From positions 1 through 64,000 of the IMG/VR virus record IMGVR_UViG_3300014613_000017: DNA of 64,000 nucleotides. The stretch is one strand, 5' to 3'. Positions within the stretch are counted from its first letter, which is position 1; the number at the start of each line of letters is the position of its first letter. Both the position numbers and the translations under genes were made by a program. The notes below the pieces were generated by a model, which did not search any database, was not told the DNA's origin, and saw only the letters and a list, made by a program, of their open reading frames with translations. Positions 4,393-33,715 of the stretch are shown here, piece after piece. Source of the stretch: a virus.

Positions 4393-4977
4393 CTATTTTG
4401 CAAGTAAATATTCAGATAATATTTTACGATTATCCTTCAGTAACCTTTGAATCCTCTGAGGAGTTAATCCTAAGTTGTCGCCAATTTCCTTAAATGTGAA
4501 GCCACGATATCTCATCTTAACTGCTTCAGCTACATCTTCAGATACCACATCTGATACCTTGCTTAACATCATATCTAATTCAATCTCATCAAAAGCGTCA
4601 CTCTTAGACTCAACTACATCATGTAAATCCACTACTTCTCCATCTGTTGAAGCTAATGGATGTTCCATGAATACTTTATCAGCCAATTCATTAGTACGAT
4701 TATGCTTATTATTTAAACTGTATTTCTTTGATTCAGTTAGAATTGTGAATTTAATCATCTTAATTGCGTATGTTCTAAATGAAGCTCCCTTAGTTGAATC
4801 ATAGTCTAAAGCTGCTTTAAACAGTCCAATTTTACCTAGTTGCAATAAATCTTCTGTGTCTAGTCCATGAGCTTTCATGAATGCCTTACGATTTGGGAAT
4901 GCTCGTTCTAGTGTAAGTGAAACATAATGCTCGTTTTTGTAATAAAGTTTCTCTGCATCTCGTTCTGACCTCTGCAT
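4393..4977 (-). CDS. sigma-70 family sigma factor, sigF/G/B-like region 2
   Basis: EDLLQLGKIGLFKAALDYDSTKGASFRTYA plus region 4 HTH; start placed at the ATG after AAGGAGG. Confidence 0.88.
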   Translation of the reverse strand: MQRSERDAEKLYYKNEHYVSLTLERAFPNRKAFMKAHGLDTEDLLQLGKIGLFKAALDYDSTKGASFRTYAIKMIKFTILTESKKYSLNNKHNRTNELADKVFMEHPLASTDGEVVDLHDVVESKSDAFDEIELDMMLSKVSDVVSEDVAEAVKMRYRGFTFKEIGDNLGLTPQRIQRLLKDNRKILSEYLLAK

Positions 4978-27790: not shown

Positions 27791-29362
27791 TTAGAAATCG
27801 AATGATGTTGGCAATGGGTCTGACGTTGATTTAGGTTTTTCCATGATAATTGTCTTCTTAAGAATATGAGGAATCAGTTCACCCTTATAATTTGTACAAT
27901 ACAAGTCGGTAAATCGAAGTGTTCCCATATTAAAATGCCCCCAAATCCGAACAAATTTCCACTTAGAACCACGAGATTTATACACGTTTAAGCTTATATT
28001 TGGCTCTAATCCAAAACCATTTACAGCACCCGAGCTACGAATAGCCTCTAATATCTTTTGATCTTTTTCACGAATTGGAAGAATGATATATCCTCCATCA
28101 ATCTTATCTGCTAGTGCTTTACTTCCTCGAATCCACGACTGATCCATATTGTCATTGACGTTTTGATTATCATTTAACTGTGTCGAGCTTTCAATGTGAA
28201 TATCATATTTGTTACACAAGTTTTTCAACATGATACCCATGATAAGCAGCACTTGGTCTTCACGTAGATTTTTAACCCCTTTATCTGCTAATGAACTGAG
28301 CAGCTTTAATGATGTATGAATGTAGTCGAACTCGATGAACTCAATATCATGCTTATTTACGTTCTTTAAGATAACTGTTTCAATATCTTCAATATCAAAG
28401 TCTTCAAGCAACTCAAACCAAAGATTTGACCTCTCAAGGATATCTACTGCTTTATCTAATCGCTTCTTCTGCTCATCTGTTAGTTTATTGTCATGAATCA
28501 AATCCTCATCAACATCAGCAATGTAGCATAAGAATGGGAGTTTAACTTCTTCGCTGTCCAATTCTGTACTGATTACTAATCCACTGCCATTTGCACCAGT
28601 CTTAACCCATTTACCATTCTCCCAAATTTCAGGAATTGTTTTAACACACATGTTAGCCATACCTAATCGACTCTTACCACTACCTGTATTACCATGCTTC
28701 AAATAGAATTTCTTTTTTCGACTTCCACGTAGAATTAAATTCAGATACTTTGAGGCTAGTGGTGCGCCATAGCTTGGAGCTACTTCCTTAGACTTCAAAA
28801 TTTCTCTTGTATCATCAGCCATATGACTTCCATTGAATGACTGCTCAAGTAAGAATTGCTCTTTAATCTCAATCATTTTCAGCTCAACATGTCTAACCAT
28901 TTGAGTTAATGTCATCTCATTGAATCGGTCATTTTGATCTTTTTCATCTTTTAAATCTACAACTGAAGCATCATAAATGTCAGTTACATCAATACCAATC
29001 TTCTTACATTCACGCAAGAATGAGAATTTTTTCACTCGGTTGAAGTAGTATTGAAAATTGTCAGGCTCTCCGATTTCCTCTAATTTAAATAAATAATCTA
29101 AGCCATCATTGCTGTTAAATGTTGCATATTGAGCTGAATAGGCTGATAAATAGCCGTCTACGTCTACTGTTGTAATCTTCTCAGCACCTTGCAGTTTCAA
29201 ATTGTGAATTGCACTAAACACAATCTGATGAAATGGTTCTGGATAGTCTGAAGCGTCTGTCTTATATTCCTTTTGTAGAATACGCTCTGGCTGAGCCATT
29301 AATCCTGCAAACAGGTGTAGGATAGCTTTTTTATCTTGGAGTTTACTTTCGATTTTACTCAT
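27791..29362 (-). CDS. DnaB-like replicative helicase (YorI-like)
   Basis: GNTGSGKSR Walker A, STE, FDYIH, QLN and RG motifs. Confidence 0.9.
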   Translation of the reverse strand: MSKIESKLQDKKAILHLFAGLMAQPERILQKEYKTDASDYPEPFHQIVFSAIHNLKLQGAEKITTVDVDGYLSAYSAQYATFNSNDGLDYLFKLEEIGEPDNFQYYFNRVKKFSFLRECKKIGIDVTDIYDASVVDLKDEKDQNDRFNEMTLTQMVRHVELKMIEIKEQFLLEQSFNGSHMADDTREILKSKEVAPSYGAPLASKYLNLILRGSRKKKFYLKHGNTGSGKSRLGMANMCVKTIPEIWENGKWVKTGANGSGLVISTELDSEEVKLPFLCYIADVDEDLIHDNKLTDEQKKRLDKAVDILERSNLWFELLEDFDIEDIETVILKNVNKHDIEFIEFDYIHTSLKLLSSLADKGVKNLREDQVLLIMGIMLKNLCNKYDIHIESSTQLNDNQNVNDNMDQSWIRGSKALADKIDGGYIILPIREKDQKILEAIRSSGAVNGFGLEPNISLNVYKSRGSKWKFVRIWGHFNMGTLRFTDLYCTNYKGELIPHILKKTIIMEKPKSTSDPLPTSFDF

Positions 29363-29861
29363 TTGCGATCCCCTCTATATCTATAAAATTCTTCTGTTTT
29401 CTCTTGGTCGGTTGGATATAAATTACTTCTGCTTCAGTATTTATTACAATGTTCTTTGCTGAATTTTCTATTTGTTGCATTTTAGTAAAATATCGTTTTG
29501 CTTCCTCATAAATGTGAGATACAATTCCAATCCCTCTTGTCTTATATTTCTTGTTATCTTCATCTTGTAAGACTGGATTTCCCTGTATTTCATGGAAGTA
29601 ATAAAGACTCATTTGTATACCTTTTAACGTGTAATTGTATTGCGTTTCAAACTCTTTAATCTGTTTAAGTATGTTTCCATTGACCATTGGTACTTTATAT
29701 AAATCACATATATACTCTATAAGTTCTGATCTGTGTTGTTTTCTAATTTCAAATTTCTCAAAGCATTTAATGTGATACGTTTTTCCTGAATGTTTAACGA
29801 ATTCGCCTTCTACTTTTTCAACTTCTTTTTCGCACTCTGGACATTTTGGAAGCCTAGCCAT
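29355..29861 (-). CDS. zinc-binding helicase-associated protein (YorH-like)
   Basis: CPEC...HIKC; position immediately before the helicase. Confidence 0.7.
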   Translation of the reverse strand: MARLPKCPECEKEVEKVEGEFVKHSGKTYHIKCFEKFEIRKQHRSELIEYICDLYKVPMVNGNILKQIKEFETQYNYTLKGIQMSLYYFHEIQGNPVLQDEDNKKYKTRGIGIVSHIYEEAKRYFTKMQQIENSAKNIVINTEAEVIYIQPTKRKQKNFIDIEGIANE

Positions 29862-29878
29862 ATGCTATGAACCTCCTT

Positions 29879-30220
29879 CTATAATTTTAAGTATAATTTT
29901 GAGAAATCTTGCATGTAGTACACTTCACCATTTTGCAATGTGAATAATAATGTCTCTAATTTCATGCTTTCTTCCACTCGAACATCAACTAAAATATTGC
30001 TTTTATCAGAATACAATTCACAAAACTTTTCAATCAAACTTACAGGGTCTTTGTTATCTGATACATCAATAACGCCTAATGAGCGATCTTTTTTAAACAC
30101 AATCAGTTGGTCGCCAAATTCTACAATTTCATAGAAGAATTTAACTTCCTGATTAAACCGTTTAACTAAATGGGCTGTAACAATTCGATTCGCTGCATCA
30201 ACAACTTTTCCTGCATTCAT
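29879..30220 (-). CDS. hypothetical protein
   Basis: AAGGAG RBS before MNAGK. Confidence 0.7.
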   Translation of the reverse strand: MNAGKVVDAANRIVTAHLVKRFNQEVKFFYEIVEFGDQLIVFKKDRSLGVIDVSDNKDPVSLIEKFCELYSDKSNILVDVRVEESMKLETLLFTLQNGEVYYMQDFSKLYLKL

Positions 30221-30314
30221 TTTGTCTCTCCTTTGTAATTGAGTTTTTAAAAGAATTGCGTAGAGCTTTTTGGATGGCACTACGCAATTAAATATTATGG
30301 TTATAATTTATTAA

Positions 30315-31547
30315 TTAAAGAGTTTTTAAGTCATCAAGAATAAGCTCTAAATGATCCCGTTGGTCTTCTGTTAAGTCTTTCAACATCTTGCCTTTGTTTA
30401 AATGTTTTTCAATTACCTTTTTAATCTTAGCGTGTACTGCTGTTTTCTCTTCTTCTTCAACTTCCATTAGTTTTGCTATAAATGCATCAACTTCTGCTTT
30501 TACTTCTGCAAAAGGCTTTTCTACTGGAGCTTCATACACATTTTGAGCTTCATCAGTTACTGCACTAACACCTTTGTCCTCTGCTTCTTTTTCGATTGCA
30601 GTTGCAATTGCTTCAACCAATGAATCATAATCAAAACGAATTACATTTGGTGTGTATTTGAATCGTGAACCAGCCTCAAATCGTGAAGTTTCTCGTAAAT
30701 GTAGGACTGTTTTTTGCTCACCATCTTTAAGGAATCCTTCAGCATATCCAATAATATCTGACATTCCCAACACAATTCCTCGTGGTCTTTCAGCTAGTGT
30801 GGACATTGTACGACTATATTCTGTTCCTTCTGAGTCTGTTACTGTCTTTGTCTGAGCATGGGAAATCATAACTAGTCCAAAATTAAGCATTGGAATTGAT
30901 CGTAAAGCATCATTGAATTCCTGTTTGAGCATTTTATAACCGCCACCGTAAGGAATATCTCCAATAAGGTCTACTCCTTCTCGATTACAGATAAACTTTT
31001 CAGCCATATCATAGAACAGGTCTACTGTATCTAAGATGATTGTCTCGAAGTGATCATGAGCTTCAGGCTTCTCAAGTTGTTTTAATACTTTCTTGAAATC
31101 TGACCATTTGTGTATAGGCTGTGCTTTAATTCCTGCTAAAGCATTGTAACCTTTCTCTGCTGCCAATAAGATTGACTTTGGAAATTGTGTAGCAATAGTG
31201 GTTTTACCTGTTTTTGGATTCAATTTGTTAACCTATCGGCTTTTTATCCGATAGCTCTTACACTTCATATTCGTGCAAGTTCGGCATATGTTTTCATCTT
31301 CCTCAGTGAGTTAAGATGTTGCGGTCTCTTGGCAGGATTATATCTTTTCACCTGCTATGCTCTGCCCCTGACTGTAGTAACTACAGCCTTCGGTTCAAGT
31401 TAGGAATCTCACCCTCCTTGCTTAATACCGCAAAGTTCACTTTTATATTTCTACAAAAGGCGGCAATCACTCACCGTAGATTGTTATAATTTTTTCACGA
31501 AGATCACGACTAATTTTTGTTGGCTCTAATTCGAAGATATTTACCAT
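30315..31547 (-). CDS. AAA_24-type ATPase (YorG-like), spliced: exon 1 31547-31473, exon 2 31220-30315, 326 aa
   Basis: Splicing gives IITIYG|NPKTGKTT, an intact Walker A; IILDT Walker B; ISHA motif. Confidence 0.88.
31221..31472 (-). mobile_element. ORF-less group I intron, 252 nt
   Basis: 5' exon ends in U; P1 CGGU/GCCG; P10 GAUU/AAUC; P7 GAGCAUA/UAUGCC with bulged A; several hairpins; terminal G. Confidence 0.88.
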
Positions 31548-32662
31548 ACTTTAATTCCCCCATTTGATTTTTTGATGTCACTCTTTCTTTGTTCCACGTA
31601 TTCTTGAAAGGACTCATGCTTTCTGTCCAGTCTCATTGCTGATTTATCTTTATATAATAAGTCAAACAGCATTAAACTCTCTTTTGTGCTATAACAAATT
31701 TCATGAACATTTAACCTATTACCTTTTCCTGAACTCACACTCTTCTTTTTCAGTCCGTGTCTAGTAAGAATTGATTGCATCTGTACAAGATTAATGTAGC
31801 TCCCACTGCTAATTCTAACTCTGATTTGACAAGTTTCAGTTCTCTTACCTTTAGAATTTGTAGGGTATTGCTTACCCACTGACCCATTGCCATCAAAATA
31901 TCCTCTAATGTAATCTAGTTCGTACTCTTCGGGCAATGAAATAGGAATCTCCTTATCTAGAGATTTACGCTCTCTTATCCCAATTCCCTTAATGTCATTT
32001 ACCATAGTTATAGAATTAATATCTAAAGAGCTGTATTTAAGACCTTTGATTTTGCCATGTCCACTTGCATTATAGATTTTAATTTCACCTTCATACTCTA
32101 ATGCGACTCTTATTTTCTCAAGATGAGAGGCATCGGACTCCTGAAGATTTATTTTTAAAAGGTGTTTCCTGTGCTTACCTCTTTCATCTATTATTGTGCT
32201 AGTATAAATACAACCATCAGCAGCAATAAATCCTAGTATATAAGCCATTTCAGATGACCAAGTTTTAAAGTAATCTTCATTAAGATTGTGTTTTCTGTAA
32301 ACAAAAGTTTCATCAATTAGCTCTTTTATTTCACTTCTACTTCTAGTTTTAATACCAAGCTCTTCAAGAACTCTTTTTACTGTTTGATCGTTGTAACCAA
32401 ACTTTATAGCAATATCTTGAAGCGTTTGTCTCTGTTCAACATACATTTTAACTACTTCTTCTTCATGACTATCACGTAGTCTTTCCCATTTTTCCTGTCT
32501 AGGAACTCCTAGTTTGCTTGACCAGTTTTGAATGGCTGAGTAACTACATCCTAATTCTTTGGCTACTTGACTGTTTGTTTTATCCTCAACTATTAGCATC
32601 TGATATAGAATTTCTCTGTTTTGATACAAAGGGAGGTCTTCACTGAATTGCTCGATTGTCAC
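31541..32662 (-). CDS. free-standing LAGLIDADG homing endonuclease with N-terminal HTHs
   Basis: YILGFIAADGCI and YIRGYFDGNGSV; stop codon overlaps the ATPase start. Confidence 0.88.
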   Translation of the reverse strand: MTIEQFSEDLPLYQNREILYQMLIVEDKTNSQVAKELGCSYSAIQNWSSKLGVPRQEKWERLRDSHEEEVVKMYVEQRQTLQDIAIKFGYNDQTVKRVLEELGIKTRSRSEIKELIDETFVYRKHNLNEDYFKTWSSEMAYILGFIAADGCIYTSTIIDERGKHRKHLLKINLQESDASHLEKIRVALEYEGEIKIYNASGHGKIKGLKYSSLDINSITMVNDIKGIGIRERKSLDKEIPISLPEEYELDYIRGYFDGNGSVGKQYPTNSKGKRTETCQIRVRISSGSYINLVQMQSILTRHGLKKKSVSSGKGNRLNVHEICYSTKESLMLFDLLYKDKSAMRLDRKHESFQEYVEQRKSDIKKSNGGIKVW

Positions 32663-32734
32663 TACCCCTTTCCAGAAGAAGAGATATCTCTTCCTCTGAT
32701 TATTTTGATTATAATTTACTAATTAAACTATTTT

Positions 32735-33715
32735 TTAAAACAAATCTCCTAAGTCAACAGGAAGGTCAGTTTTCTTAGTTTCAGATTTAGCGTCGTCACC
32801 AAATCCACCACGATTTTGATTAGTTGAATTATTGCTTTGTTGCTCTTTAGATTTAGTTTTAAGTTGCTCTAGGAATACTTCTCGTTTAACTAAAGCGTCT
32901 TTGACTAAACTAATGTCGAATGCTTTGTTGCTGTCTTCGTCAATCAATGTAGCACCAGAAATCAAATACTCAAGAATGTAGTCATATGATTCAGTTTCAC
33001 GATTTTCACCAAAGCCCATTTCTTCTACTTTAACTGTGACTTTACGGAAGTTAACAATGTTACCGTATAGCTTAATTGATGATCCTTTTTGGAAATTTGA
33101 TTCAATATAGTCACGTCCACGTTCTGGAGCTACTAAATCAAATGGCATCACCGCCCCACTATAATTTGGAACAAGCACAGACATTTTCACGCGCCCTGTC
33201 TCTTCATCCCCACTCATTTCAGGCTTAACTGATTGTACAATTGCCTCTAGATCAAACTCAGCTTTAGGTTGGTAGTTCGCTACATCCTTAACTTCTGAGA
33301 TGAAATCAATGTTAATTTGGTTGTATTTCTTATGCTCGTCATTGTCATTGAAGAATTCATTTAGCGATAAATTACCTTTAACTTCTACTTTTGTAGGAGA
33401 TAATTCACCTTCTTTAGCTTCACCTTTATCAATTAAGTTAGCAATATCTGCAACTGATAAATAACGATTAGCAGCCGTTTGCATACCTGTAAATGATTTA
33501 GATACTGCACCAGCTTTAGTTAATTCTTTTTTAAAGAATCGAGCAGTGTGTACTTCATTTTCACCAGTACGTATAGAGAACGATCCAGTAGCTGCATTGT
33601 ATTTAGCACCTGTGTTTTTATCTGTGAACTCTTTTATCTCAAAATTCTTTTCTACTACTTCTCCTACTAATTTTACCTCGTTTAGTGCTTGGCGTAACTG
33701 AGTTGCGTTTGTCAT
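32735..33715 (-). CDS. single-stranded DNA-binding protein (YorF-like)
   Basis: N.V...G OB-like N-terminus; flexible tail ending DLGDLF. Confidence 0.75.
   Translation of the reverse strand: MTNATQLRQALNEVKLVGEVVEKNFEIKEFTDKNTGAKYNAATGSFSIRTGENEVHTARFFKKELTKAGAVSKSFTGMQTAANRYLSVADIANLIDKGEAKEGELSPTKVEVKGNLSLNEFFNDNDEHKKYNQINIDFISEVKDVANYQPKAEFDLEAIVQSVKPEMSGDEETGRVKMSVLVPNYSGAVMPFDLVAPERGRDYIESNFQKGSSIKLYGNIVNFRKVTVKVEEMGFGENRETESYDYILEYLISGATLIDEDSNKAFDISLVKDALVKREVFLEQLKTKSKEQQSNNSTNQNRGGFGDDAKSETKKTDLPVDLGDLF

Follow-up and report, generated by a model that had tools for sequence, protein, structure and literature searches.

A probable group I intron in the Walker A codons of a Sak4/YorG ATPase gene beside a free-standing LAGLIDADG endonuclease gene: a candidate case of collaborative homing in an SPbeta-like phage

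Collaborative homing pairs have been described for the psbA intron of cyanophage S-PM2 with the free-standing endonuclease F-CphI and for a second phage system (Zeng, Bonocora and Shub 2009; Bonocora and Shub 2009; as summarized in passages of PMC3984707 and PMC6083498). In these pairs, according to the same passages (PMC3984707, PMC6083498), the target of the endonuclease is the intron insertion site. The nrdB intron of phage T4 is mobilized in trans by the free-standing mobE, with co-conversion of both (PMC2790892), and group I introns of the IA1 and IA2 types occur in tape-measure, terminase and other genes of Bacillus prophages and phages of Gram-positive bacteria (PMC2504315). Few pairs of a free-standing endonuclease and an intron without an open reading frame (ORF) are known, and they underpin the model of how mobile introns are assembled. 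Here we present the analysis of a 64,000-nt stretch of viral DNA (positions 1 to 64,000 of IMG/VR record IMGVR_UViG_3300014613_000017), the whole of which is called the window. In it a Sak4/YorG-type ATPase gene is interrupted within its ATP-binding motif by what is almost certainly a group I intron, with a candidate LAGLIDADG endonuclease gene directly upstream. Coordinates are positions of the window unless a locus is named, and a slash in an amino acid motif marks an insertion point. In the ORF listing every gene around the locus lies on the minus strand, in the order yorF-like gene (33715-32735), 373-aa ORF (32662-31541), a short ORF from the ATG at 31547, a 252-nt ORF-less stretch and a 301-codon ORF (31220-30315). 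The central features are:

31541-32662, minus strand: putative homing-endonuclease gene (373 aa, GTG start) whose product has two helix-turn-helix modules at the N-terminus ahead of two LAGLIDADG domains
31473-31547, minus strand: ATPase exon 1, 25 codons (MVNIF...ITIYG), ends ATC TAC GGT; GGU precedes the 5' splice site
31221-31472, minus strand: predicted group I intron, 252 nt, ORF-less, IA-like, with a single P7.1 hairpin
30315-31220, minus strand: ATPase exon 2, 301 codons plus stop, starts AAT CCA AAA ACA GGT AAA ACC (NPKTGKT)

Joining 31547-31473 to 31220-30315 gives a 326-aa protein that is colinear with intronless homologues from residue 1. The splice junction falls between Gly and Asn of GNPKTGKT, a Walker A motif that is whole only once the exons are joined. 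The exon 2 product matches Pfam AAA_24 (PF13479) at 127.6 bits, from profile position 11 on, and is 41% identical to annotated Sak4-like proteins of Enterococcus phages and 32% identical to YorG of SPbeta; the YorG homologue of Enterococcus phages is annotated as a Sak4-like single-stranded DNA annealing protein. Judged by these matches, the interrupted host gene is a Sak4/YorG-type AAA_24 ATPase, that is, a DNA-repair/recombination ATPase. The intervening sequence (31472-31221) is preceded by U and ends in G. All three of its sense frames contain stops, the earliest two codons past the junction, and an intein was dropped as a candidate on account of these stops in every frame.

The borders of the insert are set by two uninterrupted alleles. 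The ATPase of locus L050, the closest intronless prophage allele (Bacillus sp. FJAT-22090), is 85% identical to that of the window, and the blastn alignment of the two loci breaks precisely at the junction: exon 1 aligns to L050 positions 4433-4499 (77.6% DNA identity) and exon 2 from position 4500 on, with no gap sequence. The second allele (P0241), an uninterrupted 326-aa protein from another, 5.6-kb contig, belongs to the 90%-identity protein cluster of exon 2. It is 94% identical to the spliced window ATPase (20 differences), and its residues 1-36 equal the predicted junction product. By both comparisons precise excision of the insert gives back the host reading frame.

The elements of the intron were read by hand and are placed as follows:

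31468-31465, minus strand: P10 guide GAUU, pairs with AAUC, the first bases of exon 2
31464-31461, minus strand: P1 guide GCCG, pairs with the exon 1 end CGGU, with a U.G pair at the splice site
31459-31440, minus strand: P2, capped by a GAAA loop as in many family members
31433-31427 with 31325-31319, minus strand: P3, forming a pseudoknot with P7
31420-31417 with 31399-31396, minus strand: P4
31388-31370, minus strand: P6a
31362-31356 with 31288-31283, minus strand: P7, G(A)GCAUA with UAUGCC
31355-31332, minus strand: P7.1
31318-31295, minus strand: P8
31279-31257, minus strand: P9
31254-31233, minus strand: P9.1
31221, minus strand: terminal G of the intron, 3' end ...AAAUUG

The P1 and P10 guide stretches are contiguous in the intron, and the same design with other letters fits other exons, other insertion sites included, in loci L008, L078, L161 and L165. 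When the hand-read fold (P3, P4, P6a, P7, P7.1, P8, P9 and P9.1) was written on an alignment of 17 distinct family members, 95.5% of the cells were standard pairs, against 30-40% when the 3' partners were slid. Compensatory, two-sided changes occur in 33 of the 50 pairs, and none of 500 shuffles reached the observed values; P4 is invariant across the members and therefore uninformative for covariation. In P7 a G-C pair follows the bulged base, and L013 has A-U in place of G-C as the first pair of this helix. A first reading of P7 as GCCAAG/CUUGC was dropped once the relatives were aligned, and the covarying GAGCAUA/UAUGCC took its place. A covariance model of the intron core built from 16 relatives with the window excluded, here called R1, matches 31278-31436 on the minus strand at 161 bits (E 1e-38). 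This is its sole match in the 127-kb genome and tops the other matches found (at most 110 bits). The insert has a fold z-score of -3.3 and a GC content of 42%, compared with 33% for the window. Judged by its single hairpin between P7 and P3' the intron is IA-like, with no formal subgroup assigned; IA2 introns have two hairpins at this place, unlike the family of the window.

The sequence-only reading of the window had described a 252-nt insert that splits the ATPase between Gly and Asn, encodes no endonuclease and has readable P1, P10, P7 and terminal G, together with a LAGLIDADG ORF that ends in an ATGGTAA overlap 75 nt upstream of the insertion. All of its coordinates hold on the minus strand, with the ORF at 32662-31541. 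The stops in the three sense frames agree with it, and each of the intron elements was located in the window, in a fold backed by covariation.

The yorF-like gene, the endonuclease gene, the ATPase gene and the genes beyond are read as one operon, with transcription along the minus strand. In the splicing reaction proposed from this fold, the guide would pair with the end of exon 1 (CGGU/GCCG) and with the start of exon 2 (AAUC/GAUU), and the RNA would adopt the P3-P9 core with the P3/P7 pseudoknot and the obligatory terminal G. Self-splicing is expected to be GTP-dependent, with the guanosine bound by P7, and would join GGU to AAU, so that GNPKTGKT and the 326-aa Sak4/YorG ATPase are restored. 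On unspliced ATPase RNA translation would stop after 27 codons.

The 373-aa ORF is very probably a free-standing endonuclease gene. Its product matches Pfam LAGLIDADG_3 (PF14528) at 40.4 bits (cut-off 22.5) over residues 246-328; the match to LAGLIDADG_1 (PF00961) over residues 142-200 scores 20.8 bits, under the cut-off of 23.1. HTH_23 and HTH_28 were found as well. A profile of 16 endonuclease homologues matches I-AniI and I-HjeMI, and these homologues, down to 39% identity, keep both LAGLIDADG domains. Motif 1 reads ILGFIAADG with Asp149; motif 2 reads IRGYFDGNG with Asn259 at the catalytic position (codon at 31886-31888), and therefore lacks the acidic residue at its end. In the alignment FDGNG is common to the whole closest clade, and FDGDG, with Asp, is present in the more distant P0131 and P0137-P0140. 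The stop codon TAA of the gene, within ATGGTAA, overlaps the ATPase start codon and lies 75 nt upstream of the insertion point; the last codons (...NGGIKVW) hold the GGGGGA ribosome-binding site of the ATPase gene.

The comparative evidence bears on whether endonuclease and intron belong together. In the window the free-standing endonuclease gene adjoins the ORF-less intron, and L050 has neither the intron nor the endonuclease gene, only a plain 65-nt spacer at the position of the latter. The contig of P0241 is not among the three contigs that hold a 90%-identical endonuclease. A 93,545-nt soil metagenome contig from a different study spans 29706-32759 unbroken, with 211 differences and 4 gaps, and has the same contiguous arrangement of endonuclease, intron and ATPase. 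Between it and the window 4 of 373 residues of the endonuclease differ. The exon 2 product has 1 difference in its first 206 residues and 18 in its last 95, and the yorF-like flank has a DNA identity of about 85%. These values are suggestive of a near-identical tract centred on the endonuclease/intron pair; the C-terminus of the ATPase is variable in general, so the uneven divergence is only suggestive.

Six endonuclease homologues (38-64% identical) and six truncated ATPases have longest contigs of equal size (P0006/P0127, P0009/P0147, P0068/P0138, P0074/P0140, P0055/P0123 and P0064/P0142; three of the six pairs are confirmed), and none of the listed full-length ATPases matches a listed endonuclease homologue in this respect. 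The endonuclease relatives thereby appear to share contigs with ATPase genes that are split at the Gly/x site. The ...NGGIK tail is conserved in three closer homologues, which hints at the same upstream position there. Distant homologues in IMG/VR (25-36% identical) sit inside introns of the same family within Sak4 genes. In the protein tree the endonucleases cluster by insertion site, with clades of six at GxP/K, two at Gx/P and GxPKx/G, and a pair at residue 93; the window endonuclease falls in the clade with homologues tied to the Gly/x site. In loci L161 and L267 the P7.1 loop of a same-family intron, inserted at ...AG/VPKAGKT, the position used in the window, contains a 36%-identical endonuclease. 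The intron endonuclease of L161 (4549-5490) is divided into two ORFs, a 95-aa helix-turn-helix and a 214-aa LAGLIDADG protein, and may be decaying or be made as two proteins. An IMG/VR pattern scan for Gly/xPK introns returned L161/L249 and L267, of this composite form, and another P-loop gene; no second free-standing arrangement was found in that scan. Single-protein scans of IMG/VR yielded no close ATPase relatives and only one distant relative of the endonuclease. In the single-protein scan of metagenomes the relatives were at most 38% identical, save one 30-residue fragment, and a search of 370 genomes from the order of the L050 host gave no close endonuclease homologue.

Collaborative homing is, in our view, the best explanation of the locus, with the scales standing about level. 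In a mixed infection the LAGLIDADG enzyme would find the uninterrupted Walker A DNA of related phages and cut or nick it there. Repair from the donor genome would then copy the endonuclease gene and the intron jointly, since the two lie only 75 nt apart. The donor itself would be immune because its own target is split by the intron. We give about an even chance to the view that the endonuclease targets the intron insertion site. The enzyme of L161 is intron-encoded at exactly the Gly/x site, so the target of that lineage would be the Walker A junction; it is likely, but not certain, that the enzyme lineage recognizes uninterrupted Walker A coding DNA. With activity and target deduced in this way from comparison, intron and endonuclease probably spread as one selfish unit. 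The sequence-only reading had already proposed collaborative homing, and the comparative pattern (L050 without both elements, the co-occurrence, the clustering by site and the composite form) fits it. The Asn at the second catalytic position had been overlooked.

Several observations weigh against this explanation. Asn259 in motif 2 makes a double-strand cut doubtful; by what is known of the enzyme family, the protein would more likely nick DNA or leave it uncleaved. The apparent co-occurrence in the closer relatives rests on equal contig sizes, not on gene order. Locus L078 keeps an ORF-less intron of the same family with no endonuclease nearby. Finally, Rfam gave no match for the window at the gathering score, none for 31100-31650 at E <= 10, and none for RF00028 over the whole genome; an Infernal search with the Rfam group I model had been proposed earlier as a check. 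RF00028 also matched none of 11 loci that hold intron relatives, and in a control it does match the SPbeta-type introns of Bacillus subtilis. The model appears to be blind to the whole intron family, and as it misses the relatives too, its failure on the window weighs little.

A possible, if somewhat improbable, alternative is that the gene encodes an ordinary free-standing endonuclease with its target elsewhere, at the yorF/ATPase junction or in exon 1, and that the intron is dragged along by co-conversion without any protective role. Free-standing endonuclease genes of phages typically lie between genes, as here, trans homing is documented for T4 mobE and I-TevIII (PMC2790892), and the persistence of ORF-less family introns without an endonuclease, as in L078, agrees with a passive intron. 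The near-identical tract, which spans the endonuclease, the intron and the 5' part of exon 2, is equally what simple co-conversion would give. The clustering of the enzyme relatives by intron insertion site argues for collaborative homing instead, as do L161, the nearest relative with readable context, whose enzyme is intron-encoded at exactly the Gly/x site, and the homologues that seem to co-occur with ATPase genes split at this site.

It is unlikely that the protein is no longer a double-strand homing endonuclease and serves as a nickase or as a trans maturase for the neighbouring intron, or is a decaying remnant whose gene is kept only for the ATPase ribosome-binding site that lies in its 3' end. 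Such a change is favoured by the motif FDGNG of the window and its closest clade, with FDGDG retained in the distant relatives. Phages of Gram-positive bacteria commonly carry homing endonucleases that nick, and a monomeric LAGLIDADG enzyme that loses one of its active sites becomes a nickase. For a maturase speaks that I-AniI, a LAGLIDADG protein with maturase activity, is among the best structural matches to domain 1; the R1 score of 161 bits, with at most 110 bits elsewhere, gives no sign that the intron needs a helper. Decay is at odds with the intact, full-length ORF and with the two domains kept in the 16 homologues. A nickase would still support homing and so merges with collaborative homing. 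Very improbable, finally, is a dead split pseudogene without a functional intron, for which the missing Rfam match could be cited, but the two exons are intact and in phase, every core helix is intact with R1 at 161 bits, the guide sequences fit both exons, and a second phage, with a DNA identity of about 93%, has kept the arrangement.

The Walker A motif is unbroken in about 91 of the 97 related loci. Across all loci examined, introns of the same family occupy four positions within the 24 nt encoding GxPKxGKT:

After Gly: window, L161 and L267; by inference also several truncated proteins
After Gx: L111 and L227
After GxP: L078, L063, L165, L175, L185, L199, L170 and L208
After GxPKx: L216
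Walker A intron loci: L078, 4270-4510; L111, 3826-4500; L165, 545-1666; L216, 4340-5440; L227, 4331-5385

Some of the Walker A introns of the loci in the last line contain LAGLIDADG or other endonuclease ORFs and others no ORF. More insertions in Sak4 genes lie near residues 93, 118, 138 and 155. In L063 (2000-5200), L162, L173 and L177 the Sak4 gene is in at least three pieces, with several insertions near Walker A and near residues 93 and 118-157, and each insertion of these multi-piece genes has its own endonuclease-like ORF. The earlier suggestion that the Sak4/YorG family may have no introns is thus contradicted by many cases in metagenomic phage contigs, and the ATP-binding codons of Sak4 are a hot spot: introns enter them at four or more different points in a stretch of 24 nt. 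No paper on an intron in Sak4 or YorG was found in the library searched, which is incomplete.

In the protein collection, ATPase lineages with 52-71% identity start with MNPKTGKT, MEYKTGKT or MEPKSGKT. Such truncated starts are expected if the gene caller takes as start the AUG or UUG with which an intron at the Gly/x site closes, and one truncated ATPase reads through a 3' end typical of the intron family of the window. The Gly/x site would accordingly appear to be used in several ATPase lineages.

The intron family extends to other genes. A scan of IMG/VR with the most conserved core motif of the intron yielded 42 loci. Megablast of the locus against GenBank phages gave no match, and sensitive blastn found partial intron matches in GenBank phages, in gaps between the halves of split genes. 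In Bacillus phage PJN02 the relative lies in a RecD-like helicase gene, past ORFs annotated as 'mobile intron protein' and 'endonuclease'. In Staphylococcus phage 6ec, after an HNH gene, and in phiCD211 it lies in the tape-measure gene, both being R1 relatives, and in Aeromonas phage ZPAH34 it lies in the RNA polymerase beta gene. At L001 (2894-3130), L005 (2364-2579), L006 (2526-2931) and L241 the host genes are annotated as separate fragments with no intron feature; examples of such annotation are the RecD-like helicase of PJN02, the tape measure of 6ec, the RNA polymerase beta of ZPAH34 and, near a terminase gene, Listeria LIS04. Split host genes lack intron annotation as a consequence of the blindness of RF00028. 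In many phage genomes Sak4, DnaB-like, RecD-like, tape-measure and RNA polymerase genes are therefore listed as fragments, which gives the finding practical value in annotation.

Relatives have an intron of this family near residue 229/230 of their DnaB-like helicase gene, which lies two genes downstream of the ATPase and is thereby split (L127, 6760-6919; L134, 7611-7771; L086, 7651-7813; L100, 6763-6933; R1 79-107 bits). At L247 (~306) and L260 (~2127) the 3' end of a same-family intron precedes KPKAGKSS... of another P-loop protein, so that a second gene family, too, has its Walker A motif entered at the Gly/xPK position; no endonuclease homologue turned up around these two loci.

Further features and neighbours of the locus are:

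32735-33715, minus strand: yorF-like gene, start of the conserved yorF-yorG-yorH-yorI order into which the endonuclease gene is inserted
32673-32698, minus strand: near-perfect 26-nt palindrome (arms of 13 bp, one mismatch) just before the endonuclease ribosome-binding site

The stop of the yorF-like gene lies 72 nt upstream of the endonuclease gene, with no exon-1-like sequence upstream; a second exon 1 at this place was dropped as a candidate, just these 72 non-coding nt being present. The palindrome may limit or regulate translation of the endonuclease. Downstream of exon 2 follow two small genes (133 aa and 168 aa) and then the DnaB-like helicase gene, which in the window (27791-29362) is uninterrupted. 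The gene order yorF-yorG-yorH-yorI is matched in SPbeta, in Enterococcus phage VRE9_3 and in the L050 prophage. A promoter and terminator scan at the locus gave nothing above the shuffled expectation; the one 'terminator' called is the P1 hairpin with the U-run of P2 after it.

The window locus and L161/L267 may tentatively be seen as two states of a proposed route to mobile group I introns, with the endonuclease either free-standing beside an ORF-less intron or embedded in its P7.1 loop, at the same Gly/xPK site; the Asn clade may at the same time be a natural LAGLIDADG nickase. If this is true, natural sequences would offer a test of the model in which a pre-adapted endonuclease moves into an intron, or of its reverse. 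Natural relatives exist in each of four states (intronless, intron-only, free-standing pair and composite), which makes the model accessible to comparison and simple biochemistry. The mechanism of collaborative homing is known, and the locus would be a new example of it in a Sak4/YorG gene. It would add a LAGLIDADG-type case, from a phage of a Gram-positive host and in a new host gene. A literature search for free-standing LAGLIDADG endonucleases returned organelle papers only.

Compared with the collaborative pairs as they are summarized in PMC3984707 and PMC6083498, the window differs in several respects. The target here is a predicted one; a LAGLIDADG protein that carries helix-turn-helix modules at its N-terminus, and has Asn as its second catalytic residue, takes the place of the Endo VII-like or HNH-type enzyme; the intron interrupts a Sak4/YorG ATPase gene, in an SPbeta-like Bacillaceae phage. 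A composite state, in which a related endonuclease lies within an intron of this family at that very site, also exists in nature (L161 and L267). As in T4 mobE/nrdB, a free-standing endonuclease gene adjoins the intron, but the T4 nrdB intron holds a defunct endonuclease gene and MobE is of the HNH type, whereas the window intron has no ORF. The introns of SPbeta bnrdE and bnrdF are likewise group I introns in DNA-metabolism genes of the same phage group. They belong to a different family and match the Rfam model, which the window intron does not, and a search of the SPbeta record with R1 gave no match. Sak4/YorG is absent from the host genes listed in PMC2504315. The window intron resembles the introns described there in being small and in lying in the most conserved stretch of its host gene, and in both cases homologous cores fit new sites by changed P1 and P10.

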